From: an uncultured Algibacter sp.
GTDB taxonomy: Bacteria; Bacteroidota; Bacteroidia; Flavobacteriales; Flavobacteriaceae
Assembly: GCA_938003745.1 (NCBI GenBank)
Contig: CALKXS010000084.1
Span: forward strand, 6,746 to 70,745
Direction: 5' to 3'
DNA length: 64,000 bases
The position numbers were made by a program, and so were the translations under genes. The notes under the pieces were generated by a model. That model was not told the origin of the DNA. It worked only from the letters and a program-made list of their open reading frames with translations, and ran no database searches. Shown here one piece after another: positions 6,707-57,407 of this stretch. Positions within the stretch are counted from its first letter, which is position 1. Each line of letters starts with the position of its first letter.

Positions 6707-6808
6707 GGGTTACCCCGAAAGAGGTCTTGATTTCGGCAGTCGATTTTTTGTGCTGCATATGTGCAACAACCCCAAAAGAGCTTCAATAAATGTCTAAATC
6801 ACTAACGC
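6707..6808 (+). repeat. Degenerate Flavobacteriaceae intergenic element (Flavo-1-like variant)
   Basis: GGGTTACCCCGAAAGAGGTC...TTTCGGCAGTCG...AAAAGAGCT...AATCACTAACGC; GC-rich islet with an outline resembling the element at 10349-10437; family assignment from memory. Confidence 0.4.
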
Positions 6809-34649: not shown

Positions 34650-35639
34650 ATGAAAAGAATTCTAAGAATACCAATTCAGACGTCATTAATAGTAATAATA
34701 ACGGTCTTAATCTTTGAAGTAATTTATAGGTTTTCCGTAATTGATTTTTATAAATTAGAATTAGATACACTAAATACAGGTATTAGAGAATTAGATTTAT
34801 CTAAAGGAGTTGATTATTTAATTTTTGGAGATTCTTTTTCTGCGACTAGAAATAATTATGTAGATTTTTTAAGGAAATCAAGTGATAAAATATTTATTAA
34901 CTCTAGTATACCAGGAACCGGAATTAAACAAGTAAACCTTTTTTTTAGCCGCAGGTTTAAAGAGTTTGCACCAAAAAATATTATATATCAAGTATATGTG
35001 GGTAATGATCTCACTGATGTATCTCATTTAACTAATTATAATGAATTATCTTTAATAAGAAATGTATACTGGGACATATCTGATGTGATATTAAGTAGCT
35101 CTTATATTAATTCAAGACTAGGGAATTTTAAACAAGGAGAAGAAAATGTTGATCCTAAAATTTTGAACGAATTTTTTGTAAGTGACAATTATAATAATAG
35201 AAGTAAAATGTATTTAAGGTCAGATAGAAGTTATCTATATAAATCTGTTACGATTACCGACGATTTTGAAAAAAGATATTCTATGTGGATTAAAGAGGTA
35301 GAAGAGTTTATAAAAAGTATACCCAAAAATATAAGTGTTACTATTCTCTTTATCCCTCATTGTACACAGTTAAGTTCGTATTACATGGATAACATAGTGA
35401 AAATTGGAGCAACTTTTAAAGATAAAACTAAATTTAATAAGATTAATTATAGTTTTTTTAAAAAAGCTTTATTAGATTTAGGGAAATATAAAAATGTATC
35501 ACTCGTTAATCCATTAGAAAGATTGAGAAGTATCGATTCATTTCAAAATAGATTATATTATTTAAATGACCCTCATCTTAATGATAAAGGGCAAGAAATT
35601 ATTGGTGTATACCTAAAAGAAAAATTAAAATTAAATTAG
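34650..35639 (+). CDS. Membrane-anchored SGNH/GDSL-fold protein (AlgX/AlgJ-like)
   Basis: N-terminal TM helix; FGDS, GND, NDPHLN. Confidence 0.8.
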   Translation: MKRILRIPIQTSLIVIITVLIFEVIYRFSVIDFYKLELDTLNTGIRELDLSKGVDYLIFGDSFSATRNNYVDFLRKSSDKIFINSSIPGTGIKQVNLFFSRRFKEFAPKNIIYQVYVGNDLTDVSHLTNYNELSLIRNVYWDISDVILSSSYINSRLGNFKQGEENVDPKILNEFFVSDNYNNRSKMYLRSDRSYLYKSVTITDDFEKRYSMWIKEVEEFIKSIPKNISVTILFIPHCTQLSSYYMDNIVKIGATFKDKTKFNKINYSFFKKALLDLGKYKNVSLVNPLERLRSIDSFQNRLYYLNDPHLNDKGQEIIGVYLKEKLKLN

Positions 35640-35644
35640 AAATA

Positions 35645-37402
35645 GTGAGTTTTGTTTTAGGACTTTCGGCATTTTACCACGACGCTTCTGCTTGTTTATT
35701 GATGAATGGTAAAATTATTGTTGCAGCGCAAGAAGAGCGGTTTACTAGAAAGAAACATGATTCATCTTTCCCTAAAAAGGCCATTCAGTTTTGTTTGAAT
35801 GAGGCAGGAATTAATATTTCATCAGTTTCATTGATTGTTTTTTATGAAAAACCATTCTTGAAATTTGATCGTATTGTAGATTCTATTCAAAAAACAACTC
35901 CATTTGCCTTTAATTTTTTTAGAAAAGTCCTAAGATCATGGACTAAAACTAAATTATGGATTCCTGTAGTTATTAAGAAACAACTTGGCTACGAAGGAGA
36001 AATTATTTTTTCGGAACATCATGAATCGCATGCAGCTGGAAGCTTTTTTAGCTCTCCTTATACTGATAGCGCAATTGTTACCATTGACGGAGTTGGAGAA
36101 AAAGCGTGCACAACTATTGGAATAGGAAAAGACAATAAAGTTACAATTTTGAAAGAACAATACTATCCGCATTCTTTCGGTTTATTGTATAGTGGATTTA
36201 CACAATATTGTGGTTTCAAAGTGAATTCTGGTGAATACAAACTAATGGGATTGGCTCCGTATGGAAACCCTATTTACAAACAATTAATTCTTGATAATTT
36301 TGTTTCTATTACTGAAAAAGGAGAGATTACTTTAAACTTAAATCATTTTTCCTTTGAAAAAGGAGAATCTACCATTAATACTACATTTTGTAATGTATTA
36401 GGGAAGCCTGCAAGGAAACCAGACGAAGAAATGAATCCTTTTTACAAAGATGTAGCAAGTTCTATTCAAGCTGTAACTGAAGATTTTTTGATAACATTGG
36501 CAAAGTACGCAAAAGAGATAACGTGCTTAGATAATTTGTGTATGTCTGGAGGAGTTGCACTCAATTGTAAAGCGAACGGAGAACTAATCAAACAAAAAGA
36601 AGTTTTTAAAAATATTTGGGTACAACCTGCCTCAGGCGACAGCGGAACAGCTACAGGTGCTGCATATATTGGTTGGTACCATTATTTAAAAAACGAAAGA
36701 ATTATAGCTAAAGATTCTTTACAAGAACAGGTGTATCTAGGACCTTCTTATAGCTCTGAAGAAATACAGTCACTTTTAGGTAAATATGCTATTACATTCC
36801 GTAAAAAAAGCGATGATATTCTTTGTCATGAAATTTCTAGTTATTTAGAAAATAAAAAAATTGTTGGATGGTTTCAAGGAAAAATGGAATTTGGACCAAG
36901 AGCCTTAGGGAATAGGAGTATTTTGGCAAGTCCGCTGTTTGAAGATATGAAACAGCATGTAAATATGCAAATTAAAAAACGTGAAGGTTTTCGTCCTTTT
37001 GCACCAATTGTTTTAAAAGAAAAGGCGAAAGATTGGTTTTCAAATTGTGAAGATTCTAAATACATGCTATTCACATTTGAAAGTGATAAAGAAGAAAGAA
37101 TTCCTTCTTGCATTCACGAAGACAAAACTGCCAGAGTACAAACATTACACCAAGAAGACAATCCTTTACTACACCAACTTATTTCTAGTTTTGAAGAAAA
37201 AACAAGTTGTCCAGTTTTAATAAATACTTCTTTTAATGTACGAGGCGAACCTATTGTAGCTTCACCTTTAGATGCTTTGAAATGTTTTTTCCAAACAGAT
37301 ATGGATGTATTGGTTTTAGGAAATTATATTGTTCTAAAAACCGAGAATTTTGAAAATATACCTGCTGAACTTACGAATATTCAAGAATATGAACTGGATT
37401 AA
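35645..37402 (+). CDS. O-carbamoyltransferase (NodU/CmcH/SxtI family)
   Basis: YHDASA, EHHESH, DGVGE, GEYKLMGLAPYG, GGVALNC, EFGPRALGNRS, FRPFAP, NTSFNVRGEPIV. Confidence 0.96.
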   Translation: MSFVLGLSAFYHDASACLLMNGKIIVAAQEERFTRKKHDSSFPKKAIQFCLNEAGINISSVSLIVFYEKPFLKFDRIVDSIQKTTPFAFNFFRKVLRSWTKTKLWIPVVIKKQLGYEGEIIFSEHHESHAAGSFFSSPYTDSAIVTIDGVGEKACTTIGIGKDNKVTILKEQYYPHSFGLLYSGFTQYCGFKVNSGEYKLMGLAPYGNPIYKQLILDNFVSITEKGEITLNLNHFSFEKGESTINTTFCNVLGKPARKPDEEMNPFYKDVASSIQAVTEDFLITLAKYAKEITCLDNLCMSGGVALNCKANGELIKQKEVFKNIWVQPASGDSGTATGAAYIGWYHYLKNERIIAKDSLQEQVYLGPSYSSEEIQSLLGKYAITFRKKSDDILCHEISSYLENKKIVGWFQGKMEFGPRALGNRSILASPLFEDMKQHVNMQIKKREGFRPFAPIVLKEKAKDWFSNCEDSKYMLFTFESDKEERIPSCIHEDKTARVQTLHQEDNPLLHQLISSFEEKTSCPVLINTSFNVRGEPIVASPLDALKCFFQTDMDVLVLGNYIVLKTENFENIPAELTNIQEYELD

Positions 37403-37796
37403 AAATAACTATGCTATCGTTGAAAAAAACAGTAACCAAAGAAAAAAACAAAAGCAATTCGGATTGTTATTTGCTGTTATTGTTGCTGTAATTTTAGTTA
37501 TTTCATTTTATAAAAATGGTTTTGTAATGGATGTCAAACAAAATATATTAATTGGTGTTTTGACATTTTTAAGTCTAACAACTTTGGTTTTTCCGAAACT
37601 ATTTTATCCTTTTTTATGTATTTGGCTTTCGATAGGATTTGTTTTTGGAGAGATATCTTCCTTTATAATTCTAGTTTTTTTGTATTATTGCCTGATTAGT
37701 CCAATTACTTATTTTCTTCGTCTAAAAAATAAAGAAAAGCAAATACCTACTTGGATTGACAAAAGCGACAAAATTAATTATCAAAAGCTATCATAA
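37389..37796 (+). CDS. SxtJ-family membrane protein
   Basis: KQFG-TM-TM-W...LYYCLISPI pattern; start overlaps the carbamoyltransferase end. Confidence 0.8.
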   Translation: MNWIKNNYAIVEKNSNQRKKQKQFGLLFAVIVAVILVISFYKNGFVMDVKQNILIGVLTFLSLTTLVFPKLFYPFLCIWLSIGFVFGEISSFIILVFLYYCLISPITYFLRLKNKEKQIPTWIDKSDKINYQKLS

Positions 37797-37955
37797 ATGA
37801 ATAAATCGAGAATTTTTATAGAGTTTTTTAAATTCTTACTGCATCAAAAAAAATATTGGCTACTTCCAATTATTACTGTTTTGATATTATTAGCTGCATT
37901 GATGCTATTTGCTGAAAACTCAGTTTTGTCTCCTTTTGTATACACTCTGTTTTAA
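37797..37955 (+). CDS. 52-aa membrane microprotein (SxtK/DUF5989-like), not in ORF track
   Basis: MNKSRIFIEFFKFLLHQKKYWLLPIITVLILLAALMLFAENSVLSPFVYTLF*; ATG directly follows the stop of the SxtJ-like gene. Confidence 0.88.
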   Translation: MNKSRIFIEFFKFLLHQKKYWLLPIITVLILLAALMLFAENSVLSPFVYTLF

Positions 37956-37961
37956 ATAGCG

Positions 37962-39089
37962 TTATTTCTTAATAGCTGGTTGAATATATGTAAACATTTC
38001 TTCTGCAACTATCTTGTTCGCTTTTTCACCTGTATGACAAAAATCTGTATAGACCGTTGTATCAGTTGTGTCAAAAACTGTACTTATGTCTACGAGTAAA
38101 GTATCTTTTGTGTCTAGAAATTTTGTTCTAATTTTAGCATATGTTAAATGATATAAGTCTTCATAAAACACTGTTTTTTTAGCAAATTCTTTTTCTACGA
38201 TTGTCAATTGTTTTTTAGAGTAAATAACGGGTTGTAAAAAATTAAAAACTTTGAAATCGTATTGATTCCCTAGACCTTCAGAAATATTTACATATTCTTT
38301 ATAATATAGAGAAATCTCATTCGCTAATTTAGTTGATTCTCCCGCTACACTTTGATGATATTTATTTGGAGTCATTTTTGATGAAACTTTCATAACCATT
38401 CTATAAATATTGCTCGAAATTAACATCAAATGAAATCTTTTGCTAAAACTATGATTTGTTTTAAATTCTTTTATACGAATAGCAGAATTAGAAGGCAAAC
38501 CTCCTCTATTATTTTGGTATGCAGAATTGACATCATTAACACCATCATAAAAAATAACAATGTCTGGAATATTTCCGTGAATCAATTCACATTGCAATTG
38601 AATATTTTCAATAGCCCTTACATAACCATGACAACCAAAATTAGAAACTTCAATAACCTTATCTGGGAACTTTTTAGAAATTAACTTAGAAAGCTCTGAA
38701 GGTATGGTGTACTCATCTCTAGCTCCAAATCCAAATATTGTAGAACCTCCAAAACAGAATATTTTGAAAGGCTTGTCCGTCTTTTCAGAACTAATATTAT
38801 AAGTCTTCCTTCTACCTCTCTCATCTATATTAAAATAATCTCCTTTTGATGCTTCTATTTGGTATCCTGTATACGCTTTCCAGCGCATTTGTTGTCCTCT
38901 CATTTCTCTATACGCTGCCTCAACAGTAGCAATATCTACATCTTTATACAACCCGGAAGATTTCATTGTTTTTACGTCGTCTTTAGGTTGCCCATCCCTA
39001 TAATTAAAAATAGCACCAAAAATAATTTCTAAAAAAATCAAAAGAACAAATACATTCCTTATGTAGATAAGTCTCAATTGTTTTTTCAT
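37962..39089 (-). CDS. Membrane-anchored SGNH/GDSL-fold protein
   Basis: N-terminal TM helix; FGGST, NFG..GY, DGVND, DFCH. Confidence 0.82.
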   Translation of the reverse strand: MKKQLRLIYIRNVFVLLIFLEIIFGAIFNYRDGQPKDDVKTMKSSGLYKDVDIATVEAAYREMRGQQMRWKAYTGYQIEASKGDYFNIDERGRRKTYNISSEKTDKPFKIFCFGGSTIFGFGARDEYTIPSELSKLISKKFPDKVIEVSNFGCHGYVRAIENIQLQCELIHGNIPDIVIFYDGVNDVNSAYQNNRGGLPSNSAIRIKEFKTNHSFSKRFHLMLISSNIYRMVMKVSSKMTPNKYHQSVAGESTKLANEISLYYKEYVNISEGLGNQYDFKVFNFLQPVIYSKKQLTIVEKEFAKKTVFYEDLYHLTYAKIRTKFLDTKDTLLVDISTVFDTTDTTVYTDFCHTGEKANKIVAEEMFTYIQPAIKK

Positions 39090-39287: not shown

Positions 39288-39947
39288 TTAGATTTTTACT
39301 ATTTCGAAAATATAATTTTTTTCCAATGCTACAGTTTTCTCTAAAATTATATTCATTTTAAAGCTATTATTTACACCTATTTTTTTTATTTCTTCCAAAT
39401 TACAATCTTGTGAAAGTATCATAATAACATTTTTTAAATCTGTTCTTTTAACCAATTGCTTGAAAAACTCCTGGAAGTATTCAAAATTTTCACCGCAAAA
39501 CCAAGCCTGGTCTTTTGTGCTTTCGGGGTGCTTGGGGTAGTAAGGAGGGTTTACTACTATATAATCAAATGTATGACTTGTTAAATTCTCAAATAAATCT
39601 GAATGTAAAACCTCTAACTTTAATTGGTTTTTGTTTTTTGCTTTATTTAATGAGTTTAGTGCGATTTGATTGATATCTGTTGCGGTTACCAATGCTCCTT
39701 TTGAGCTTGCATATAAAGAAATAATTCCTGAGCCACATCCTAATTCTAAGAATGTTTTGTCTTGTAAATTGAGTTTTTTAATGAAATTCAATATTATTTT
39801 GGTACTAATAGTAAAATGTGGAGGAAATACTTCTGGATGTACTAATATTTCTAAGTTTTCATACCTAAACTTTCTTGGCTTTTTATAATATTTTTTAAAC
39901 CAAAATTGTAAAAATGGATTTATAATCTTTTTTGTATAAGCTCTCAT
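39288..39947 (-). CDS. HemK-like class I SAM methyltransferase (N-methyltransferase motif)
   Basis: ELGCGSG, SDLF, NPPY. Confidence 0.88.
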   Translation of the reverse strand: MRAYTKKIINPFLQFWFKKYYKKPRKFRYENLEILVHPEVFPPHFTISTKIILNFIKKLNLQDKTFLELGCGSGIISLYASSKGALVTATDINQIALNSLNKAKNKNQLKLEVLHSDLFENLTSHTFDYIVVNPPYYPKHPESTKDQAWFCGENFEYFQEFFKQLVKRTDLKNVIMILSQDCNLEEIKKIGVNNSFKMNIILEKTVALEKNYIFEIVKI

Positions 39948-39955
39948 ATCTAAAC

Positions 39956-41494
39956 TTATTCTGAATAAAACCCTTCAATTTCTGGTTGTCTATATTTCCA
40001 AATTTTATGGAATGCTTTTATTTCGTATGGGTATTTATAAAAACCTGTTTTATATCTCCAATTAGAAACTAAGCTTAGTACTTTTTTCTTATAACCATGA
40101 ATTCTAAAATCTGAAACTGTAGGGAAATTACCGTTCAATACCGTTTCAAAGTTTTTAATGGTGTCAATCATATAAGGTTTTAACCAAGGTGTTAAGGGGT
40201 TTTTTCGTAAATCAAATTTTTCCCAACTTGGTGAAACCCACTCTTCCAGAGTTTCTGGAAAAGAGAATCCTGCATCTAGAATTTGTTGATATAATTCAGA
40301 TCCTTTTGTAGGTGTTGGACTGTACAAATAAATAATAATCTCTGCCTCTGGATTGATTTTTTTAATTTCTTTGATGAAATTGATATCCCAAAGTATTTGA
40401 TCATATACCTGTTTTTCTGTGTCTGCCGGCATCCCTAAAACAAATGACATTTCAGGAATGATTCCTATATTTTTCATCCGCAAAGCAAAATCTTTTATCA
40501 TTTTACCAGACTGTGTGCCGCCTTTGTTCATTTGCTTCAATACTTCATCATTTCCTGTTTCGGCACCCAAAAAAATCATTTTACAACCTGCTTGCTTCAT
40601 TAAGCTTAGTTCTTCATCAGAATATTTATTGAGAGTATCAATTCTTCCTTCTCCCCAATATTTTATATTGTCATGTAAAATCAATTTAGAAAATTCTAAA
40701 ACGCGTTTTTTTGAAGTAAAGAAATTATTATCATGAAACTCAATTGCATCAATATCATATTTTTCTTTAAAATATTTAACATCTTCATACATTCCTTGGG
40801 CTGATTTCCCTTTCCATCTACCGTTAAAAACAGGCACAATCCCACAGAATGAACAGGTAAATGGACATCCCATACTTGAATGATAAGACAAGGTGGTCTT
40901 TCCCATAAAAGTTTTTGACAAGTAATTTTCAAGAGGATAGAAAACGTTCAAATGGGTATATGGTAAATTAGGTAAGGCATCTTGATCCAAGAGTGGTTCT
41001 TTCTTCGTTCTGATAATGTTTCCTTTACTATTTCTAAAAATTAAATTGTCGATTTTACTTAGCTTTTCCTCAAAGACTACTTCGTCTTGTTTATCTTCTT
41101 CTAAAACTTTTAGTAAAGAAGGAAAAGTTACATCTCCAGGTCCATTTACAATATAATCTACCAAATGAGAATCCATACAAACTCCATATTGATTGGAAGG
41201 AAAATAACCTCCCCAAATTATTGTAATATCAGAAAATTGTTCTTTTACTCTTTTTGTAAAAGAGATTGCCTGCTTTAATTGAGGACCTGGCATAACCGTT
41301 GAACAAAAATATTTGTATTCACCAGTCTCTAGATATTCAAATATCTTTTGGAATGGTTTCTCTTCTAAATTCCCATCTACTAAAATATAATCATATATGC
41401 CATGAATAGATGCGCCTACTTGCAAAATAGAATTTGGAATTCTGTGTTTGTTATTACCACTTTTTGGATTAAAAAGAATGACTTTATTACTCAT
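39956..41494 (-). CDS. Cobalamin-binding radical SAM protein
   Basis: N-terminal B12-binding-like domain (IIWGGYFPS, GPGD); GCPFTCSFC; HDNNF; FLGAETG. Confidence 0.9.
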   Translation of the reverse strand: MSNKVILFNPKSGNNKHRIPNSILQVGASIHGIYDYILVDGNLEEKPFQKIFEYLETGEYKYFCSTVMPGPQLKQAISFTKRVKEQFSDITIIWGGYFPSNQYGVCMDSHLVDYIVNGPGDVTFPSLLKVLEEDKQDEVVFEEKLSKIDNLIFRNSKGNIIRTKKEPLLDQDALPNLPYTHLNVFYPLENYLSKTFMGKTTLSYHSSMGCPFTCSFCGIVPVFNGRWKGKSAQGMYEDVKYFKEKYDIDAIEFHDNNFFTSKKRVLEFSKLILHDNIKYWGEGRIDTLNKYSDEELSLMKQAGCKMIFLGAETGNDEVLKQMNKGGTQSGKMIKDFALRMKNIGIIPEMSFVLGMPADTEKQVYDQILWDINFIKEIKKINPEAEIIIYLYSPTPTKGSELYQQILDAGFSFPETLEEWVSPSWEKFDLRKNPLTPWLKPYMIDTIKNFETVLNGNFPTVSDFRIHGYKKKVLSLVSNWRYKTGFYKYPYEIKAFHKIWKYRQPEIEGFYSE

Positions 41495-41613
41495 AAACTT
41501 GGTCGTTTTATTTTTTCAAATTAAATTAGAGTTCTTGTTTTTAGTAATTCTTTTACTTATTTAGCAATTAAAAAAACGAATACATTTCCTCTGTAGATAA
41601 ATTTCACTACTTT

Positions 41614-42351
41614 TTATACTATTTTTTGAAAAAGATAGTTTGGATTTTTAGAAACAAATTTATAGTTTTTATTCTTCTTCATTTCTTTCATAAACAAGGC
41701 ACTTCCAAAGTGCGAACCATCTATAGAATCATCAAATAAAACAAATCCTGATTTTACCAAATGTTTGTTTACATTCTCAAAGTCTCTTTTAGCATACTCA
41801 TAACTATGGTCACCATCTATATATGCAAATGATATCGGATCACCTAATTGAATATCCCTTTCAAAAAGATCCTTTATTTTTATTTTTTGCTCATACTTTT
41901 CAAAAAAAGCATCAGAAGTTAAATGAAATGAATGGGGTAAATTTTCAGCATTCAAAAACTTCATACTTCTCATAAAATTATTTTTCATGTACTCAGCAAA
42001 ACTAGAACATGTAATGGTATCACTTCCATCAATCATACAGGATTCAGTATATGTATCCTTAACTCCACCATATATCCATGGATCGCAATTGAATAATTTT
42101 TCAGTACGATTGTTTTTTTTCAACAAATGCAAAATAAGACTTGTAGACAGTCCACCATAAGAACCAATCTCAACAACACAACCATTATTTGGCATATTTT
42201 TCAAGGCATAATCAATTAGATAAGGATTGCCAACATGTAACATCCCTTCTCCAGTAACAAGACTTCTTAGCAAATTAATAAACATATCATCAGGAAGTTT
42301 CTTAGCCCTTATATGAGAAAACCCTCTTCTTATTTTCTTAAAATCTATCAT
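41614..42351 (-). CDS. Class I SAM methyltransferase (Methyltransf_24-like)
   Basis: VEIGSYGGLS, YIDGDHSYE, GFVLFDD. Confidence 0.85.
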   Translation of the reverse strand: MIDFKKIRRGFSHIRAKKLPDDMFINLLRSLVTGEGMLHVGNPYLIDYALKNMPNNGCVVEIGSYGGLSTSLILHLLKKNNRTEKLFNCDPWIYGGVKDTYTESCMIDGSDTITCSSFAEYMKNNFMRSMKFLNAENLPHSFHLTSDAFFEKYEQKIKIKDLFERDIQLGDPISFAYIDGDHSYEYAKRDFENVNKHLVKSGFVLFDDSIDGSHFGSALFMKEMKKNKNYKFVSKNPNYLFQKIV

Positions 42352-42579
42352 TATTTATTTGCTGTTAATCGTTTTTATTCTAAAAATTATCACGGAATTT
42401 TTAGCGTTTTTTAGAGCTTTAAATTTACATAAATTTTCTATAAAGAATGCAAGCGGAATAACTTTTATATACTGTACTAATGATCATTTTAATTAGAAAT
42501 GAATTCTTTATCATTAATTATATATTGTATTTTTATTAGCGAATATTTTGTTTTTTTACTTTATAATAAACTGATTTAT

Positions 42580-43737
42580 ATGATTTTAAAAAATATTACT
42601 ATTTTAAATAACCAAAATGTATCATCTAAACAAAACCTCTATATTGGTAGAGATAAAATAGTAAATTCCAATTCTATAGAAAAAAACGATTCTGATGTAG
42701 TTATTGAATTCCCTTTTGAAGTTATTGCTTTTCCTGGCTTAACCAACTCTCATGAGCATTTGACTTTGAACACACATCCTATACACAAAAATAAAACGTA
42801 CGTTGACTATGTTGAATGGACATATGACAATTTTGAAAAAACTATCGAAGAAATCAATTCGGTTCCTTTTCAATTAAAATATGAATGGGGTATTTTAAAA
42901 AATGTATTGCACGGTTTCACAACAATTCTTCAACACGATGCTTATTTAAAAAATTACACCTCAAAGATTGCGGATATCTATACAGATACATTGACAATTC
43001 ATTCTTTAACTTTCGATAAAAAATGGAAATTAAAAGCATTGCTTCCTTTTTCCAAAAAGAAAATTATCCATATTGCTGAAGGAACCAGTAGTACAGCAAA
43101 AAATGAATTCAAAAAATTTTCAAAATGGTGTTTAAATTCTAAAAACATACTCGCTGTACATGGAATTAGCTTAGAAGAAAATGAAACGAAAAAAATTGGT
43201 GGATTGATTTGGTGCCCAAATTCTAACATGCACCTTTATGAAAAAACTGCTGACATAAAAAGGCTTAAAAAAAGTACACCTATATTATTTGGAACAGATT
43301 CTACCGTAAGCTCTGATTGGAATTTATGGAAACACTTAAAACAAGCACGAAATTTTAACTATTTATCAGACCAAGAATTATTTGATAGCATTACAAAAAC
43401 ACCTGCTAAAATTTTCAATTGGAAAAACAAAGGTTCTTTAAAAGCGGGAGCGATGGCTGATATTGTCATTGCAAAAAAAAGCAATTCTAATTTTTACGAT
43501 TCTTTTTATTCTTTAGAGTCTAAAGATATTCTATTGATTGTAAAATCTGGTAATATTATTTTTTATGACGATTGCATTTCTGAAAAAATAACTATAGCAA
43601 TAGATACAGAAACGTTTGAAAAAATTGAAATTCAAAGAAGCATTAAGTTTGTCCGCTTCGGCATCAATTCTTTAGTAAAAAAAATCCAAAAATATCATCC
43701 TGATTTTTCTTTTGAGTCTTATTTCAAGATTCTATAA
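42580..43737 (+). CDS. Amidohydrolase family protein (deaminase-like)
   Basis: PGLTNSHEHL, HIAEG, AVHG, WCPNSN, FGTDS, GSLKAGAMAD; start moved to MILKN. Confidence 0.87.
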   Translation: MILKNITILNNQNVSSKQNLYIGRDKIVNSNSIEKNDSDVVIEFPFEVIAFPGLTNSHEHLTLNTHPIHKNKTYVDYVEWTYDNFEKTIEEINSVPFQLKYEWGILKNVLHGFTTILQHDAYLKNYTSKIADIYTDTLTIHSLTFDKKWKLKALLPFSKKKIIHIAEGTSSTAKNEFKKFSKWCLNSKNILAVHGISLEENETKKIGGLIWCPNSNMHLYEKTADIKRLKKSTPILFGTDSTVSSDWNLWKHLKQARNFNYLSDQELFDSITKTPAKIFNWKNKGSLKAGAMADIVIAKKSNSNFYDSFYSLESKDILLIVKSGNIIFYDDCISEKITIAIDTETFEKIEIQRSIKFVRFGINSLVKKIQKYHPDFSFESYFKIL

Positions 43738-43741
43738 CAAT

Positions 43742-44716
43742 TTATTTTTTAAAAAAATAATGCTCATTTTGTTGAATGCATTCTTTTAGTTTTTTAGCAA
43801 AAATTAAATTGGATTTATTGTTTGGATGTGGATCTAATTCATTTAAAATATATCCTGTCAAATTTTTATCCTTAAAAAAAATAGATACATCTAAAAATAA
43901 AAGGCTATTCTTTTCAGCTAACTCTTTAATTTGATGTACTCTTTTAGAATTGTAAGCAAGATCGATATAAAAAACAAGTCCTTTTACATCTTTTTTTGTA
44001 AGTATATTATTTATTACGTTGAATTTTTGATCTACAAATTCTAGTTGATAGTTTTTATAGACTACGGTTTCATTTTTATACGGATTCAATTTTATTTTAA
44101 GTAATTTTTTCAAGTACGAATCCCAGAAAACATTTTTCTTAGGCTTGATAATAAATGCATCCAAATTAAAATCTCTTCCTTTTTCCTTCTGATCGTTAGG
44201 TGCACAAAAACCAAATATTACTAGATCAGGATTGTATTTCAATACTTTTTTTTCTAAAATCATTGTGTATTCGTCCAAACCATATCCAGATACACCAAAA
44301 TTTAAAAACTCATATGCATTTTTATTTTCATCTATCGAAAGAAGTGTTTCCGTTTTTTTAGCATAAAGCTCTTCTTCCGAAACGCCAGTTCCCATTGTAT
44401 AAGAATCTCCTATAACAGCGACTCTTCTTTTATTTTTTTTAAGCTTATAATTTTCACCTCTAAACCCTTCACTATTGGTATGAAAATCTACCAATTTGTA
44501 CTTTGTATCTAAATTGGGCAATAATTCATACTTTAATCCATTTATTTCAGAATATTGAACGAGACCTGAATTGTCAAAAATTCCAAAAGAGTTGGTTTTA
44601 GAATATGAAAAAGCAGCACTTTTAAAAAAATAAATCCTCGAAATAACTTCTCCTAAAAATAAACCTATAAAAAGTCCAATTGAAAGTAAAATAAGTTTGA
44701 ATTTTAACTGTTTCAC
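43742..44716 (-). CDS. Membrane-anchored SGNH/GDSL-fold protein
   Basis: N-terminal TM helix; TNSEGFRG, IGDSY, NFGVSGY, LDPHPN. Confidence 0.85.
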   Translation of the reverse strand: MKQLKFKLILLSIGLFIGLFLGEVISRIYFFKSAAFSYSKTNSFGIFDNSGLVQYSEINGLKYELLPNLDTKYKLVDFHTNSEGFRGENYKLKKNKRRVAVIGDSYTMGTGVSEEELYAKKTETLLSIDENKNAYEFLNFGVSGYGLDEYTMILEKKVLKYNPDLVIFGFCAPNDQKEKGRDFNLDAFIIKPKKNVFWDSYLKKLLKIKLNPYKNETVVYKNYQLEFVDQKFNVINNILTKKDVKGLVFYIDLAYNSKRVHQIKELAEKNSLLFLDVSIFFKDKNLTGYILNELDPHPNNKSNLIFAKKLKECIQQNEHYFFKK

Positions 44717-44737
44717 AAGATTTAAAATATTCTTAAA

Positions 44738-45883
44738 TTATTTTTTAGATCTCATTTTGTTCAACTTGTACAGAATTAAAACAATCCACTGCATGATACA
44801 TACACTCACTAAAACCCCAAACACCTCATGTTTTTTAATAAAAACCAATACTGCAATAAAGTTACATACAAAACCAATACAATTCATATAAATTATTTTA
44901 CGTTCTTGATTGTTTTTCATAAGTTCAAGAACATCTAACGTATAATAAAAAGAAGGTATCGAGATCAAAACCCCCATACTATAATAACTGTAATGAAGGT
45001 TTAATTGTACAAATTGCTCCATAAAAAGCCAAATCATAAAACCGCCTAACGAAGTTAAAGGAATCGCAATAAAATTTAATTTTATTTGAATTTTATTTAG
45101 CAAACTAACTGATGAACGATACATGTGTTTTCGAAATGGAATTGTTATAAAACTAGCAACTGCTTGCAACATTAAAAATGCTGCAATTAACAATTGATAC
45201 TCTGATAGCCTAGCTTTTGGCAAGTACAAATTGACAATATAAAGATCTATTTTAGAAGTTGCCCAACCACTAAAACCCAATGCAAAAAACCAAAAGCCTG
45301 CTTTAAATTCTTGTATTGAAAATTCATAAGAAAATTTCTTATCCCATAATTTAAAAGAAACAGACAATAACAATAATTTTGCTAAAAAAGCCCAACAATA
45401 TAGTTCTAAGAAAATATCTAAGCTATACGATTCTATATAAAGAACACTTATAAAAACAATTCCAAAAGCAACTATCTCTGCAATAAATTGAGCACTGAAT
45501 TTTTGATAAAAAATAACCAAACTATCCAGTGCATTATAACTATGCATCAATACTACAAGTGCAACGCACTTTATTGCAATGGAAAATGGGAAAAAGAAAA
45601 AAAACACCAACGCCAAAGGAAGCAATGCACTTCGACTTAAAAAATTAGAATAAAAGGCATGTTCTATTTTTGTAGGATTTTTGCTGTATTTCCGAATCAA
45701 GTATTCTTTATTTCCCCAGCCCAAACTAAAAACAACGAAGAAAACCCACAACAAAATGTTTATTAATGTTCCCCAATCTTCTTTTCCGAAAAATTTGATT
45801 CCAAAAACTGCAATCAAAAAATTAAACATTGGTACTGAAAACCCACGCAACGTATTTATTAAAATTAGCATGAATTTATTCAT
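44738..45883 (-). CDS. Wzx/MATE-like multi-pass membrane protein, putative flippase
   Basis: About 10-12 hydrophobic segments; SKIDLYIV...YQ pattern; adjacent to a glycosyltransferase. Confidence 0.65.
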   Translation of the reverse strand: MNKFMLILINTLRGFSVPMFNFLIAVFGIKFFGKEDWGTLINILLWVFFVVFSLGWGNKEYLIRKYSKNPTKIEHAFYSNFLSRSALLPLALVFFFFFPFSIAIKCVALVVLMHSYNALDSLVIFYQKFSAQFIAEIVAFGIVFISVLYIESYSLDIFLELYCWAFLAKLLLLSVSFKLWDKKFSYEFSIQEFKAGFWFFALGFSGWATSKIDLYIVNLYLPKARLSEYQLLIAAFLMLQAVASFITIPFRKHMYRSSVSLLNKIQIKLNFIAIPLTSLGGFMIWLFMEQFVQLNLHYSYYSMGVLISIPSFYYTLDVLELMKNNQERKIIYMNCIGFVCNFIAVLVFIKKHEVFGVLVSVCIMQWIVLILYKLNKMRSKK

Positions 45884-46925
45884 GATACAATTTTAAATAC
45901 GCTTCTAAAGATTCTTTTTCAGAAGAAATTAAAATACGCTCTTTTTTTTGAAGCTCTTTGTTTAAAATTTGCTGACAAGCTTCAACCATTTCTTTTTCTG
46001 TAATTGTAACAAACCACTTTGGAATAGCAGTTGCAAAACCTACATTCTTAGAAACAATGGACATTCCAGAATTTAAGGCTTCCAAAAATACATATCCAAA
46101 AGATTCATAACTACTTGTATGTAATAGTATTTTTGCTCGTGCCATTTTTCGAAAAACTTCTTCCCTAGAAAGTATGCCTTTCAATTGAATTGCTTCTAAA
46201 AGATTTGCTTCTCTTATTAAATTTTTAAGTTTTTTTTGATCTTTACCTCCTCCTATAATTTCAACTTTAAGTGCTGGCCGCTTTTTCACCAACTCCCCAA
46301 CAATTCTTATAAAAAGAGGATAATTTTTTATAGGAATTAAGGAACCAACTCCTAGAATATCAATAGACGGTTTTTCTAATTCCGGAAAAACACGACTCTC
46401 TAAAAACCAAGGAATCAATGTCGATTTCAGTCCATAATTTTCAAGTAAGATTCTTTTGTGATTTTCAGACAACGTCACTAATCTTGTTTTAGAATTCACT
46501 AAGAATTTTACATACCGATTTCCTAGGCGTGCATCTTGCCCCATAACCGTTGTAACATGCTGAATATTGTGCTTTTTTGAAAAGCGAACTCCAACTTTAG
46601 AACATTCTCCTATCCAAAAACTATGAATACATGTAATCGATTGTTTTTTATGTAAACGCCTCAATATTTGAAATGCCTTTTCCCAAATAAAAATTTTCTT
46701 CAGACGCATTAATTTCCCATTCAATGGAATCACTTCTATTCCGTTCCAATCGTATTTTTCTGTTGTATAAGGAAATTGAAATGTTAATAATGTCATTTTA
46801 CAATCGGGCAATGCTTTGCGCAAACTTTTTATATAAATTTGCAATGCAGGTATTGAAATAGAATCTTGTTCAGATTCTGCAAAACCAGGTGTTAAAAAAA
46901 CGATATTTGAATTTTTATTTTTCAA
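45876..46925 (-). CDS. Glycosyltransferase family 4
   Basis: VGSLIPIKN, TSSYESFGYVFLEAL (Ex7E). Confidence 0.9.
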   Translation of the reverse strand: MKNKNSNIVFLTPGFAESEQDSISIPALQIYIKSLRKALPDCKMTLLTFQFPYTTEKYDWNGIEVIPLNGKLMRLKKIFIWEKAFQILRRLHKKQSITCIHSFWIGECSKVGVRFSKKHNIQHVTTVMGQDARLGNRYVKFLVNSKTRLVTLSENHKRILLENYGLKSTLIPWFLESRVFPELEKPSIDILGVGSLIPIKNYPLFIRIVGELVKKRPALKVEIIGGGKDQKKLKNLIREANLLEAIQLKGILSREEVFRKMARAKILLHTSSYESFGYVFLEALNSGMSIVSKNVGFATAIPKWFVTITEKEMVEACQQILNKELQKKERILISSEKESLEAYLKLYHE

Positions 46926-46926
46926 T

Positions 46927-47859
46927 TTAAAAAGTATCTAAATCTCCTAAAGTTAACTTGAGTTGTTCTAATGGGAATTCAGAAGTGAAATTTTTAAAAC
47001 CAACTGCCCAAGAATCAACAGATTTTTTCGCATATTCTTGCATTAGTTTTGCTATTTGAGTATCTGGAGAAGCTTGAATATTTATTTCTCCAATTCCATT
47101 AGAAGCCGCTATTTGTTTCAATTTTTGAAAAGCTTTATGAAACAATTCTTCCGAAAAAACTTCAACATCACCTATAAGCAAACCGTTTTTAATTTTTATC
47201 CAAAAAAGCACACCTTTAATAGAAATTGTAAAATTATTTGTAAAAGATTTATAGGTGTAAAACTCATCGTTTCTAGAGGTAGAAACTACATCTTTATTCA
47301 AAAAAACACTTCCAATAATTTTTTTATCAGTTTTGTATTTCTCAAAAACTTTTGAAATTTTCTTATCGTAGAAACGATTTGTTGAATCAAGTTTTCGTGC
47401 AATTTTTTCTATTGGAATAAATGATGTTCTTATATTAAACCGTTGTAATCGTTCTTTGTATTGCCAATCTAATTTGTTCATATATCCGTATTCAGAATTT
47501 TGATTTGGAAATCCCCAAACAAATTTAATATTTGCTTCTTTTAACAAAGTATCTGTCAATTTTCCTAGCTTCGTAAACAAACCATTTCCAGTATAATCTG
47601 GAAGTGTCATTGCGTCTCCATATTGTGCAGCCAATTCATATTTCTCTTTGTATTTCATTAATACAGGAACAGCACCATGAAAAGCAATAGGATTTTCCCT
47701 ATCATATGCCAGATGTCCAAAATAACCTGTACCTAAATAAGAGGTGTCAAATTTTGTTAAAACATCTTCTAACGTTACTGTATTTCCAAAAACTTCTTTA
47801 TAGAGATATGCTAAATCTTTTATATTTTCTGAAGTAAGTGGTACTAATGTGTATGACAT
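46927..47859 (-). CDS. GNAT-family acyltransferase
   Basis: DAMTLPDYTGNGLF acyl-CoA binding loop; WGFPN. Confidence 0.8.
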   Translation of the reverse strand: MSYTLVPLTSENIKDLAYLYKEVFGNTVTLEDVLTKFDTSYLGTGYFGHLAYDRENPIAFHGAVPVLMKYKEKYELAAQYGDAMTLPDYTGNGLFTKLGKLTDTLLKEANIKFVWGFPNQNSEYGYMNKLDWQYKERLQRFNIRTSFIPIEKIARKLDSTNRFYDKKISKVFEKYKTDKKIIGSVFLNKDVVSTSRNDEFYTYKSFTNNFTISIKGVLFWIKIKNGLLIGDVEVFSEELFHKAFQKLKQIAASNGIGEINIQASPDTQIAKLMQEYAKKSVDSWAVGFKNFTSEFPLEQLKLTLGDLDTF

Positions 47860-47863
47860 AATT

Positions 47864-48850
47864 TTAAAAATAAGAACCTTTTAACAAACTAACTAATTGA
47901 AGCTCAAATGAAATGTAAGGATTCATTACAAAACGTTTTTTAAATGCTTCATTTTTTTCTATTTCGTTTTTATTATAATCAACCAATAAAACTTTTTCAT
48001 ATCCTATTTCAAGACAATAATTCGCTAGTTCCTCTGTATAATACCCAAATGGAAATGCAAATTCTTTAATCGGAAAACCAAGTGTTTTTTCTAGTATTTG
48101 TTTGCTTTCAGAAATTTCATTTTTTGCGGCTTCTAATGGAATGGCTACTAAATTTGCATGTGTTTTTGCATGAGACCCAACAGTAAATAGCGCGTCTTTC
48201 GCTATTGCTATTAATTGCTCAAAACTCATTAACTTCCAATATTCTTCTAAAGGTTTTGATGTTATATTTTTCCAATCGTCTTCAAAAACACCATACATTT
48301 CTTCAATTTTTTCGTAAGGTATTGTTTTTAATGTATTTTTTAAAGAAACCCCTTTGTAGGTGAATTCTTTTTTTTCATTTCTCGTATATACATTTCCATC
48401 AAAAACAACTTGTTTTTTTGTTGAATATTTCGAAACTAAATCTAAAAAGTCTGGCCATAAAAAAGAACTTTTTTTATGAATTGTTGTTATGTAAAAACTC
48501 GCTGGAACTTTATATTTCTTAAGAATAGGAATTGCATATTCATAATTATTTAAATACCCGTCATCAAAGGTTAAAGCAATATTCAATGTGTTTTTTTTGA
48601 ACTTCTTTCTATAATAATCATCTAGGGAAATGACATTATAATTTGAAGTTATATAATGTATAAAACGTTCAAAATATTCTTTAGAAATAAATCTGCTATT
48701 TATATCTGTATCTCCAACAGTATCAACACCATGAAATACTAAAATCTGTTCTCCATATCTATTCTTTAGCAAGCTTTTTTTGAATCCTATTTTTAATAAA
48801 AAGACTCTATATAATAGTAATAATCGCGCTTTTATTCTAATCCACAACAT
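47864..48850 (-). CDS. Polysaccharide deacetylase (CE4/NodB)
   Basis: LTFDDGY, GSHAKTH, FAFPFG; start at MLWIRIK overlapping the upstream stop. Confidence 0.9.
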   Translation of the reverse strand: MLWIRIKARLLLLYRVFLLKIGFKKSLLKNRYGEQILVFHGVDTVGDTDINSRFISKEYFERFIHYITSNYNVISLDDYYRKKFKKNTLNIALTFDDGYLNNYEYAIPILKKYKVPASFYITTIHKKSSFLWPDFLDLVSKYSTKKQVVFDGNVYTRNEKKEFTYKGVSLKNTLKTIPYEKIEEMYGVFEDDWKNITSKPLEEYWKLMSFEQLIAIAKDALFTVGSHAKTHANLVAIPLEAAKNEISESKQILEKTLGFPIKEFAFPFGYYTEELANYCLEIGYEKVLLVDYNKNEIEKNEAFKKRFVMNPYISFELQLVSLLKGSYF

Positions 48851-50285
48851 TGTCTTTTTTATTTTGAAGTTGATATAAATGCCATCCACCTCCAAACGTT
48901 TCTATAACATTCAATTTGTAAGACGTGTTAATTGATTTCCAATTGATCATTGGGTTTTTTCCTTTCCATTGTTTTTTCAATTGTGTTGGATTGAACAAAA
49001 CCAAATCACCTTCCAAAAAATTGTTATGAAGTTTGTCATACAAGCTTTCATATTCAAAATTCAATCCTCTTCCTGCAAGTGCAATATCTAAATCAAAAGC
49101 ATATAACTTAGTTCCTTGATAAGAAATGATTTTTGAAACTACAATATTTTCAAATTGAGATCTATAAAAAATGCTTTTATAAGTATGCATAAAAAAAAGA
49201 AGTTGTATCAATACCACTACAGGAATCACGAACTTAGCAAAATGCTTTTCAAGTAATTTTAATTGCATCAACTCTTTGTATGCAGGATATAAAAACAATA
49301 AAACCAATGGATAAATAAGTCCTAAAACTCTTGAGTTCTGAAAAGGAATGCCTGCCAAAAAAAACAGATACAATGCTATTGAAAAAAGAAGTGTTTTTTG
49401 AAAGAAAGTAAAAGAATATAGTCTCTTTTTAAAAAAGTAATATCCTAAAAAGACACCTATAAAAATAAATCCAGGATGGAAAAATACATAAAAAACATAT
49501 AGTAGATTAAAGCAGGAATATTCTTGTACTCCATCTGCTGTAATATAAGAGGATTTAAAAAAATTAAATAGGCTCCAAGAATTCAAAAAATAATTAGACG
49601 TTGCGTTCAAAAGAGCTCCCCATTGAAAAATAAGAAATGGAATTGTTACCAGCATGCTACAAAAAACAGATAGCAATAAACTACCATAATATCTTTTTTT
49701 GTAAACTATATAAAGTGCATATATAAGTATTGGAAACAAAACAATCAAGGATGCATAGCGTGTCATAAAAGCGCAGATCATAAAAAAGAACATTGGTAAT
49801 GCTTTTGATTGTTTCAAATAAAACTTAAAAAAGAAGTAAAAACTCAGAATTACAAACATAGAAGCCATAGCATCAGACATGACAATCATTCCAGATTTTA
49901 AAAAATAAGGTGAAAGCATACCGAAACACAATACATACCAAAATTTATATTTCTTATCTTCGAAAAATAAATGCAAAATTTTGTAAAGAAAAAAGACTGT
50001 TGTTGAAAAGCTTAGTACAGTCACAAATTGTAGCCCAAGAGCTGTATTTCCTAATAAAAACCCGAAAACACTTCCAAGAAAAGGATACAAAACTGGCCAA
50101 TAAAAGGCTCCAGGATGAATTCCTTCTGTAAAATACACCTGAATACCTTTGGTATATCTTAAGTATTCATATGGATCTTGACCATAAAGTCCATCACATC
50201 CAAAAAAGTTTAAACCAAATAAAAGTAAAAATGGAAAGACAAAGAAAACACCAAATTTGTAGGTTATGAGATGTGAGTTCTTCAA
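48837..50285 (-). CDS. GT-C fold (ArnT/PMT-like) integral membrane glycosyltransferase
   Basis: GQDPYEY in the first loop, YWPVLYP, MSD, TRY; about 12 TM helices. Confidence 0.7.
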   Translation of the reverse strand: MKNSHLITYKFGVFFVFPFLLLFGLNFFGCDGLYGQDPYEYLRYTKGIQVYFTEGIHPGAFYWPVLYPFLGSVFGFLLGNTALGLQFVTVLSFSTTVFFLYKILHLFFEDKKYKFWYVLCFGMLSPYFLKSGMIVMSDAMASMFVILSFYFFFKFYLKQSKALPMFFFMICAFMTRYASLIVLFPILIYALYIVYKKRYYGSLLLSVFCSMLVTIPFLIFQWGALLNATSNYFLNSWSLFNFFKSSYITADGVQEYSCFNLLYVFYVFFHPGFIFIGVFLGYYFFKKRLYSFTFFQKTLLFSIALYLFFLAGIPFQNSRVLGLIYPLVLLFLYPAYKELMQLKLLEKHFAKFVIPVVVLIQLLFFMHTYKSIFYRSQFENIVVSKIISYQGTKLYAFDLDIALAGRGLNFEYESLYDKLHNNFLEGDLVLFNPTQLKKQWKGKNPMINWKSINTSYKLNVIETFGGGWHLYQLQNKKDNVVD

Positions 50286-50330
50286 TACTTTTTTTATTTT
50301 GCAGGTTTAAATACAGAGTTTTTCGAAACT

Positions 50331-50362
50331 CAAATTTAAAGAAATGAAGTGAATTATATTTG
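50331..50362. promoter_or_regulatory. Back-to-back -7 elements for divergent cluster operons
   Basis: Minus-strand TAAATTTG at 50331-50338 and plus-strand TATATTTG at 50355-50362; no clear -33 elements. Confidence 0.4.
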
Positions 50363-50475
50363 AAAAAACAAAAAAATATAGTTCTTTAAGATTTGTAACC
50401 TTTATCAAAGAAAATCAAATTGAATTATATGCAAAATATATTCCTATTTATGAAAGCAGTTCTAAATTTAAAAAT

Positions 50476-51438
50476 GTGAAAAATTGTATTTTTTGTAATC
50501 AAAAAGAACAACAACTCGTTTTTAAAATTAAAACGTATTCATTTCCATGGAAGATACAAAAATGTCCTTTCTGCAAAGCTTATGAACTTTACCCTACTCC
50601 AACTGAAAAACAATTTAATGAAGTTTACAATACGGGTTACTATGGAAAAGGGAAAACAAAATTCAATCCGCTAATAGAGTTTTTTGTAGATATTTTTAGA
50701 GGCATGAGAGCTTCGAGAGCCGTAAAAGGAATTCAAAAAAATGCTAAAATATTAGATGTTGGTTGTGGCAGTGGTTCTTTTTTAAATTTTCTAAAAAAGA
50801 AATATAGCTTCGAATTGACTGGCCTAGAAATTGAAGGTGATGCAGCCTTAAGAGCAAAAGACAATAATAAAGGATTTACGCTATTAACTGGTTTTCTAAA
50901 AACTACAGATTTTAAAGCCCCTTTTGATCTAATTACGATGTATCATGTTTTTGAACATTTGTTGACACCTCATGAAGATTTAGAGCACATAAAAAAAATT
51001 ATAAACCCAAATGGGAAACTGGTAATTTCTATACCTAATATAGACAGTTGGCAAGCCTCTATTTTTAAAGACAAATGGTTTCATTTAGATGTTCCTCGAC
51101 ATCTTATTTTTTTCAAACCAAAAGATTTTAAAAAAATGATGCAATCTAAAAATTTTGAAATCAACAATGAACGATATATTTCTTGGGAGCAAAATCCTTA
51201 TGGTTATATACAGTCATGTTTGAATTGTCTCTCAAAAAAACATAATTTCCTATATGATTTTTTAAAAACAAACGTAAAAAACAGTTATAAAAAAAGAGAC
51301 CTATTCAGACTTGGGTTGCACATTCTTTTTACAGGAATTACATTACCTTTATTTCTGGTTTTAGATATTTTAGAAAGTATTTTCAAAAAATCTGCAACTG
51401 TTGAGTACACCTTTATTTATAGACCAAAAAATGATTAA
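50476..51438 (+). CDS. Class I SAM methyltransferase with N-terminal zinc ribbon
   Basis: CIFC...CPFC; LDVGCGSG; MYHVFEHL; PRHL. Confidence 0.88.
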   Translation: MKNCIFCNQKEQQLVFKIKTYSFPWKIQKCPFCKAYELYPTPTEKQFNEVYNTGYYGKGKTKFNPLIEFFVDIFRGMRASRAVKGIQKNAKILDVGCGSGSFLNFLKKKYSFELTGLEIEGDAALRAKDNNKGFTLLTGFLKTTDFKAPFDLITMYHVFEHLLTPHEDLEHIKKIINPNGKLVISIPNIDSWQASIFKDKWFHLDVPRHLIFFKPKDFKKMMQSKNFEINNERYISWEQNPYGYIQSCLNCLSKKHNFLYDFLKTNVKNSYKKRDLFRLGLHILFTGITLPLFLVLDILESIFKKSATVEYTFIYRPKND

Positions 51439-52171: not shown

Positions 52172-52188
52172 AAAACAAGCGTACTTTT

Positions 52189-53310: not shown

Positions 53311-53325
53311 TTGAGTTCTTTATAT

Positions 53326-54426: not shown

Positions 54427-54440
54427 TTTAATAATACTAT

Positions 54441-57381: not shown

Positions 57382-57407
57382 TTATATGAAGTTATCAAAG
57401 TTACTTT

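Follow-up and report, generated by a model that had tools for sequence, protein, structure and literature searches.

A DUF5989 microprotein as a candidate carbamoyl carrier between a carbamoyltransferase–SxtJ pair and membrane-anchored SGNH proteins

General features of the locus

How might a group activated by a soluble cytoplasmic enzyme reach a hydroxyl on the far side of the membrane at a locus that has no membrane-bound O-acyltransferase (MBOAT)? The question is raised by a 64,000-nucleotide stretch of DNA, referred to below as the window, from an uncultured Algibacter sp. of the Flavobacteriaceae (GenBank assembly GCA_938003745.1, contig CALKXS010000084.1, forward strand, positions 6,746 to 70,745). 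A first-pass annotation of window positions 34,650 to 39,089 described a tightly coupled operon for an SGNH enzyme, a carbamoyltransferase (CT), an SxtJ-like protein and a 52-residue microprotein of the DUF5989 family (PF19451), met tail to tail by a second SGNH gene, and proposed that a tyrosine of the microprotein relays a carbamoyl group to the SGNH proteins. The open reading frames (ORFs) and their spacing are as described there. On the sequence evidence, there is a little over an even chance that DUF5989 is a tyrosine shuttle, loaded with carbamoyl by the CT, probably seated on SxtJ, and unloaded onto the catalytic serine of an SGNH protein, so that an outer hydroxyl becomes carbamoylated. 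The features are as follows (window coordinates; TM, transmembrane).

34650..35639, + strand: SGNH1, 329 aa; N-terminal TM segment 13-31; motifs G60-D-S62 and D307-P-H309; Ser62/Asp307/His309
35645..37402, + strand: CT of the NodU/CmcH type; PF02543 E 1e-75, PF16861 E 1e-69; no TM segment
37389..37796, + strand: SxtJ-family protein, 135 aa; PF19588; three hydrophobic segments
37797..37955, + strand: DUF5989 microprotein, 52 aa; PF19451 E 5.5e-19; K18-K19, TM 21-39; ends SPFVYTLF
37941..37943, + strand: codon of the invariant Tyr49 (Tyr in 86/86), the proposed carrier residue
37962..39089, - strand: SGNH2, 375 aa; TM 10-28; motifs G-G-S116, GVND and D349-F-C-H352; convergent on the microprotein gene

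Of the four forward genes, SGNH1 and the CT lie 5 nt apart, the CT and SxtJ overlap by 14 nt, and DUF5989 follows SxtJ without a gap (0 nt); the stops of the convergent DUF5989 and SGNH2 genes are 6 nt apart. Pfam gives SGNH1 sub-cutoff matches alone (SGNH E 0.013, GDSL E 0.09); the SGNH profile built in this analysis, itself seeded with SGNH1, matches it at E 2e-54. SGNH2 likewise matches GDSL_2 below the cut-off (E 2e-4), its predicted catalytic residues being Ser116, Asp349 and His352. The SxtJ assignment is marginal (24.8 bits to PF19588, where the cut-off is 24.4); the C-terminal half of the protein has conserved W, P and W residues. In the CT, PF02543 and PF16861 are both present with intact metal-site and GPRALG motifs, and its closest relatives are mostly from Flavobacteriaceae.

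Conservation of the tail and predicted topology

The microprotein has the lysine pair, the single helix and the FVYTLF end reported in the first-pass annotation. In alignment A2 of the family, Pro24 and Tyr49 are the sole invariant residues (86/86). The last 12 columns of A2 were then cut off, and all ORFs of 191 loci were searched with the tail-less profile, which gave 169 matches and 156 distinct peptides. All 156 have Tyr within the last five residues; it stands fourth from the end in 154, and 141 end in the exact F-x-Y-x-x-F motif. Loci L081-L190 had been picked with the full Pfam model, so that only the count from CT-selected loci is free of that selection: of 60 peptides there, 60 have Tyr in the last five residues, 58 have it fourth from the end, as had been expected, and 55 have the exact motif. 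By chance such an end is rare. Among 6042 ATG-started genome ORFs of at least 40 aa only four have it, namely the DUF5989 peptide, the sole MBOAT of the genome and two short ORFs without an evident TM segment near the end.

Lysine and arginine average 4.0 before the TM segment and 0.08 after it, with an excess before it in all 86 peptides, so the positive-inside rule agrees with the outward C-terminus predicted earlier. An N-terminal TM segment is found in 132 of the 135 scorable SGNH proteins of peptide loci, and two of the three exceptions are probable motif mis-picks. Ser and His are invariant in the 82 rows of SGNH alignment A8, rows that were picked for having the Ser motif. The tail and the SGNH domain are accordingly predicted to face outwards and the CT to lie inside. 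No solved structure related to the DUF5989 peptide was found.

Gene neighbourhood

Neighbourhoods were sampled from 100 regions chosen by hand among PF19451 matches, favouring diverse families and long contigs, and from 80 loci chosen by CT alone. The peptide is present in 65 of the latter; the other 15 stop at contig ends or have no peptide nearby. Counts refer to loci flanked by 5 kb or more on each side. Around 86 peptide-selected loci, a CT lies within 3 kb in 69, SxtJ is present in 61, an SGNH gene within 5 kb in 40 and an MBOAT in 4; around 54 CT-selected loci, a set rich in relatives, SGNH is present in 46 and an MBOAT in none. By comparison, random 10-kb stretches of the Algibacter genome itself match the SGNH profile in 96 of 5000 cases. 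As the first-pass annotation expected, MBOATs are rare beside the module, with 4 in 140 loci, in a two-seed phmmer search by which distant MBOATs may go unseen, and none among the 30 proteins scanned between 34.6 and 63.9 kb of the window. The one PF03062 (MBOAT) match of the genome, which is 88.8% complete, lies on contig C168 (L191:142-2559); this protein, which ends in SFIYFQF, and an anchored SGNH of its own form a canonical pair within the same cell.

Some neighbourhoods deserve separate mention. At L151:8426-8867 two DUF5989 genes stand in tandem, and on a Methylosinus plasmid (L222:2917-8979) genes for an AMP-binding protein, a small ORF, SGNH, SxtJ, DUF5989 and CT follow in a row. Sinorhizobium meliloti 1021 carries an SGNH-SxtJ-DUF5989-CT module at SM_b20469-20472 (L221). 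Its last gene, SM_b20472 (L221:10170-12002), is called arcB2, ornithine carbamoyltransferase, in PMC7268258; this name is likely wrong, because the sequence matches the NodU/CmcH-type CT profile (E 5e-282) and the gene lies in the module. The four genes are listed as non-essential in LB in the same paper. Nodule transposon sequencing, in the data outside supplementary files 13 and 14, gave no clear depletion (26, 4, 5 and 59 insertions against 26.5, 6.9, 6.4 and 44.6 expected).

Natural fusions

The partners are also joined in single chains. In four Planctomycetota loci a fusion gene directly after the CT encodes, in this order, an N-terminal TM segment, an SGNH domain, three helices and DUF5989:

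L131:8088-9716, SGNH-3TM-DUF5989
L132:7834-9381, SGNH-3TM-DUF5989
L133:10111-11685, SGNH-3TM-DUF5989
L134:8178-9743, SGNH-3TM-DUF5989

The SGNH-DUF5989 family has 596 matches; among the top 120, both Pfam types are present in 119 and Tyr stands fourth from the end in 119. The AlphaFold2 (AF2) model of the fusion is confident overall (predicted local distance difference test, pLDDT, 92; predicted template modelling score, pTM, 0.88) and less so in the tail (pLDDT 54-68). It places four helices between the SGNH domain and the tail, an even number that would put both on the same side of the membrane. CT-SxtJ fusions were found in 4 loci and 9 clusters. SxtJ-DUF5989 fusions look real in L180, P0167 and P0188 only; most of the 38 such cases among 120 matches look like gene-caller read-throughs and were not counted, and GC-rich shadows account for many of the long open frames that end in the peptide. 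A single-chain model of an SxtJ-DUF5989 fusion (pLDDT 81.5, pTM 0.52, tail 47-53) has no defined packing; its fold search gave a best Z of 5.1 and no Foldseek match at E<=0.001.

Beside these genes, another peptide gene, this one free, follows closely after the fusion in L131, and L132-L134 have a short SxtJ-like ORF upstream of the CT, of which L132 and L133 keep the C-terminal half only. The three-helix linker was considered as SxtJ-like and ruled out (probability 1%).

Homologues in the position of DltX

The same contig as one of the fusions carries a second system. At L134:246-5342, genes for an AMP ligase, an acyl carrier protein (ACP) and an MBOAT without a terminal tail converge on an SGNH-TPR gene, after which comes a micropeptide gene whose product ends in FLYAVF. 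A metagenome scan with this MBOAT gave 26 loci. Of the 16 close ones, 12 have the micropeptide (two are identical) and 4 stop at a contig edge; of the 10 distant ones, 8 encode an MBOAT with its own tail and no peptide, and 2, on short contigs, are tail-less without a peptide. The peptides of L134 and L193-L207 end in FLYAVF, FLYAIF or FLYGVF. They align to DUF5989 with an hhalign probability of 95% over 41 columns, the proline included; 13 of 13 match PF19451 at E<=1, weakly (best 8.5e-7), and 0 of 13 match the DltX family, PF12459. Judging from its genes, the conserved, Dlt-like operon of L134 and L193-L207 appears to be a split MBOAT system that has not been described and that brings an equivalent of DltX with it, and this gene context suggests that the DUF5989 family stands where an MBOAT system needs a shuttle.

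DltX acts with the MBOAT DltB and the SGNH protein DltD in teichoic-acid D-alanylation, and FXYXXF is described as the acyl shuttle of DltX and PatA (PMC12148441). The microprotein resembles DltX in being a single-TM protein of about 50 aa with a predicted N-in/C-out orientation, a terminal FXYXXF and, as partners, an anchored SGNH and a donor in the cytoplasm. The window locus differs in having no MBOAT, ACP or ligase, the donor being a soluble CT with SxtJ, and the DUF5989 module occurs mainly in diderm phyla; the DltX layout of tail-less MBOAT, carrier protein and ligase is found only in the related subfamily of L134 and L193-L207. Membership in the DltX family was rejected, since neither the PF12459 profile nor an MBOAT partner is found: only 1 of 86 DUF5989 members matches PF12459 (E 0.021), while all 86 match PF19451, and PF12459 has no match in the genome of the window. 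The label "DltX-like" thus survives as a working analogy, backed by the fusions and the MBOAT-operon homologues, under which the micropeptide may work as DltX does, and lapses as a statement of family.

Pairs of the PatA-PatB/AlgI type share the terminal motif and an anchored SGNH. SGNHs that partner MBOATs match the analysis-built SGNH profile at E 1e-23 and at 1e-7 to 1e-13, and the fusion model aligns with PatB at Z 14.5. There, in contrast, the motif is fused to the MBOAT, and DUF5989 resembles MBOAT tails over no more than 17 columns (probability 34%).

Proposed relay and points against it

CTs of the NodU/CmcH family convert carbamoyl phosphate and ATP to carbamoyl-AMP, and aryl carbamates readily carbamoylate serine hydrolases. 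From the module, the tail and the fusions we infer the following chemical steps. The cytoplasmic CT would be held at the membrane by SxtJ and would load carbamoyl onto Tyr49; the tail would hand it to the catalytic serine of the anchored, outward-facing SGNH, and this enzyme would transfer it to an extracytoplasmic hydroxyl group, probably that of a sugar. How the tail meets the CT is a guess: the hydrophobic end may dip into a groove or thinned patch formed with the conserved C-terminal hairpin of SxtJ. C-termini in the CT clade (window 37391-37402 and others) carry a conserved aromatic-x-L-D tail in 95 of 157 cases, possibly a docking element for SxtJ.

The chemistry would be that of an already known Tyr-to-Ser relay, fed by a new donor module. 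More broadly, and at rather less than an even chance, CT-SxtJ-DUF5989-SGNH would be a third route for acylating extracytoplasmic targets besides MBOAT and AT3, in which, instead of the membrane acyltransferase, a soluble enzyme that depends on ATP and a membrane protein of 135 residues would carbamoylate Tyr across the bilayer; the micropeptide family would have been swapped between this donor module and tail-less MBOATs, and SxtL-type enzymes would be carbamoyl transferases, not decarbamoylases. No statement of such a relay, and no paper naming DUF5989, was found in the literature searched; subscription papers and bioRxiv supplements fell mostly outside its scope, and a prior mention of the relay is possible.

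The expectations of the first-pass annotation that comparative data can reach were all borne out, which supports its interpretation in part. Several observations weigh against the relay. Neither carbamoyl-Tyr nor carbamoyl-Ser has been observed. The CT and the Tyr are predicted on opposite faces of the membrane, and SxtJ is far smaller than an MBOAT, with no route or channel across evident. Ser replaces Tyr in one fusion, and hydropathy gives four linker helices in two of the four Planctomycetota fusions and only three in the other two. The co-occurrence with SGNH genes expected in the first-pass annotation is often not an adjacency, 32 of the 69 peptide-selected loci with a CT having no SGNH within 5 kb; it stands locally at the remaining loci and on the scale of whole genomes, as follows.

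Forty CT-peptide loci without a nearby SGNH lie often among housekeeping genes (86 of 150 neighbours scanned). Alignment A8 was searched against whole genomes for 34 of these 40; one of those left out had an SGNH at 5.3 kb. A best match of E<=1e-19 was obtained in 33/34 DUF5989 genomes without an adjacent SGNH vs 1/34 peptide-less genomes, at a cut chosen post hoc and with kin unmatched, which counts against leaning on the contrast; at the search cut-off of 1e-8 the numbers are 34 and 16 genomes, the 15 extra being short partial matches. Without G559 and G626, which both supplied rows of A8, the count is 31/32. Some CT is present in 12 of the 34 peptide-less genomes, with a strong SGNH match in 0/12, G219 having a weak one beside its CT. 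All 16 genomes searched in which the peptide gene is an orphan have a CT elsewhere (G577 and G610 were left out, their CT being already known).

A further difficulty is that CTs nested in the same clade stand beside anchorless SGNHs, in L044, L050 and L053 in genomes without the peptide and in L054 and L074 with the peptide elsewhere in the genome. The tree was made with FastTree and midpoint-rooted, with 81 of 160 rows kept after redundancy filtering and clades without a support test. Such pairs without the peptide mean that CT and SGNH can pair without a shuttle; they also fit a shuttle needed only where a membrane separates the two. L044:8001-11102, L050:4586-9806 and L053:4667-9809 have CgnD-like SGNHs and an ORF of about 700 aa, resembling the PNP-1 cluster, and a 45-aa hydrophobic ORF between CT and SGNH in L044 may be an SxtJ remnant.

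Related systems and alternative explanations

Related systems bear on what the SGNH proteins do. The solved structure closest to the fused SGNH domain (L131 model) is CgnD (PDB 8a2n; Z 22.7, root-mean-square deviation 5.0, 260 aligned; the next at 16.0), and the L053 SGNH is CgnD-like by sequence (E 8e-53). CgnD, whose cluster has a CT, has been shown to be a slow hydrolase cleaving a leader peptide (PMC10070186), and PNP-1 requires both SGNH and CT (PMC4010436). CgnD/CgnI of crocagin and Pnp1B/Pnp1D of PNP-1 thus share with our module an SGNH paired with a NodU/CmcH-type CT; the CgnD-like relatives in the analysed loci differ in having neither membrane anchor nor peptide.

The enzymes of the NodU/CmcH/TobZ type, WapO included, have the two-domain architecture and the family motifs of the window CT, whose clade differs in being accompanied by SxtJ, the peptide and anchored SGNHs. 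The enzymes characterised so far are understood to pass the group straight to the acceptor. Carbamoylation of the Pseudomonas core lipopolysaccharide (LPS) is assigned to WapO alone, and the table rows covered name no SxtJ- or DUF5989-like gene (PMC8005017).

Descriptions of saxitoxin clusters list sxtI, J, K and L as a group, with J and K given as "unknown" and acting "in conjunction" with SxtI (PMC2679770, PMC2684587; bioRxiv 10.64898/2026.06.11.731795). A CT, SxtJ, a protein of about 54 aa and GDSL/SGNH genes thus stand together there as here, and the genes are of similar size (sxtJ 405 bp, sxtK 165 bp); SxtK equates with DUF5989 by size and position alone, no cyanobacterial SxtK sequence having been compared. 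In the parts of these papers available no mechanism is stated, and SxtL is read, as a proposal only, as a decarbamoylase (PMC2679770, PMC2684587), which counts against a transferase role. That the locus itself is a saxitoxin cluster was rejected, with no polyketide-like synthase or amidinotransferase Pfam match among the 30 proteins of the region searched, 34.6-63.9 kb. The suomilide cluster of Nostoc KVJ20 holds an MBOAT, a CT (bslR), sxtJ, the 165-bp sxtK-like bslS and two SGNHs (bslT1/T2), and the suomilide hexose bears three groups, carbamate, butyrate and hexanoate (PMC10157211). Two SGNHs thus stand beside two donor systems, as a correlation only. Suomilides stay cell-associated (PMC10157211), which does not tell cytoplasm from periplasm.

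These systems speak for the leading alternative, itself unlikely: SxtJ and the microprotein would only tether the CT to the membrane and the SGNH, the CT acting from the cytoplasmic side on an acceptor that is lipid-linked or a small molecule, the tail binding, and the SGNH editing or removing groups later. Membrane crossing would not be required. Solved CT relatives (TobZ, GdmN and NovN-type entries) act directly on small molecules; WapO is credited alone, SxtL has been proposed as a decarbamoylase, and CgnD is a hydrolase. A binding role fails to explain why Tyr is never swapped for Phe while both flanking Phe positions vary, and peptide homologues hold the place of DltX beside tail-less MBOATs. 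The joint state of L. wollei, with a truncated sxtI and sxtL lost (PMC3037375), is compatible with a scaffold and with the relay alike.

The sidedness problem would be solved if the peptide and SGNH formed a relay while the CT charged a lipid or small carrier that crosses the membrane, or charged the peptide before insertion or during topology inversion, SxtJ being an insertion or flipping helper. The low tail confidence of both models (pLDDT 54-68 and 47-53) fits the mobility this calls for. Such indirect loading seems improbable: no conserved carrier or flippase gene accompanies the trio, which is often found among housekeeping genes, and a protein carrier used once would probably be costly. 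Least probable of all, by a little, is that the peptide shuttles an ordinary acyl group from another membrane acyltransferase in trans, the CT being a mere co-clustered tailoring enzyme or, its N-domain being TsaD-related, the maker of another activated group, for instance an N-carbamoyl amino acid. In its favour are the homologous peptides beside MBOATs, the one MBOAT elsewhere in the genome and the number of SGNHs in the cluster, five. Against it, that lone MBOAT already comes with a tail (FIYFQF) and an SGNH; of the 86 peptide-selected loci, 69 have a CT within 3 kb of the peptide gene and 4 have an MBOAT near it; and fusions of the CT-SxtJ and SxtJ-peptide kinds tie the peptide to the CT.

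The surrounding cluster

The five ORFs belong to a larger cluster that reaches about 59.7 kb and includes three further anchored SGNH genes:

39288..58841, strand not assigned: tailoring cluster, with three B12 radical-SAM enzymes, five methyltransferases, GT4, GT2, a polysaccharide deacetylase, GNAT, an amidohydrolase and two multi-TM proteins without a Pfam match
43742..44716, - strand: SGNH3, anchored, same broad clade
52189..53310, - strand: SGNH4, anchored, same broad clade
53326..54465, - strand: SGNH5, anchored, same broad clade

All five SGNHs have a membrane anchor and Ser, Asp and His. Under the relay, SGNH1 is the likely acceptor of the microprotein's carbamoyl group, being the best candidate of the five because of its operon position and its conservation (close homologues in 30 other loci; those of SGNH2 are in 20). 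The tailoring cluster likely makes or modifies the final acceptor, its link to the module being partial. It encodes an 8-TM protein of GT-C-like size, and its first methyltransferase and first radical-SAM genes are found again next to the module in 24 and 30 loci, respectively. The gene carB (carbamoyl-phosphate synthase large chain, window 31735-34587) lies directly upstream of the module; this adjacency was set aside as evidence, as it recurs in 10 loci that are mostly relatives, with 3 outside them (L106, L107, L118). Promoter and terminator scans of the locus were at or below chance.

Distribution and implications

PF19451 forms 6565 clusters at 50% identity. In the window's phylum, 115 of 301 genomes carry it; the figures are 61 of 251 for the phylum of L049 (over the cut-off) and 42 of 81 for that of L043. 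It is rare in the actinomycete phylum, that of L053 (3 of 201), and absent from the 14 control genomes. The module is thus common in the first three of these phyla. If the relay is true, SxtJ and SxtK, listed as "unknown" in the available 2009-2026 literature, would gain a role, and a large SGNH clade would move from hydrolases to transferases. Carbamoylation of envelope or periplasmic sugars would be widespread, and how an acyl group can be moved across a membrane when no large acyltransferase takes part would become a new problem.

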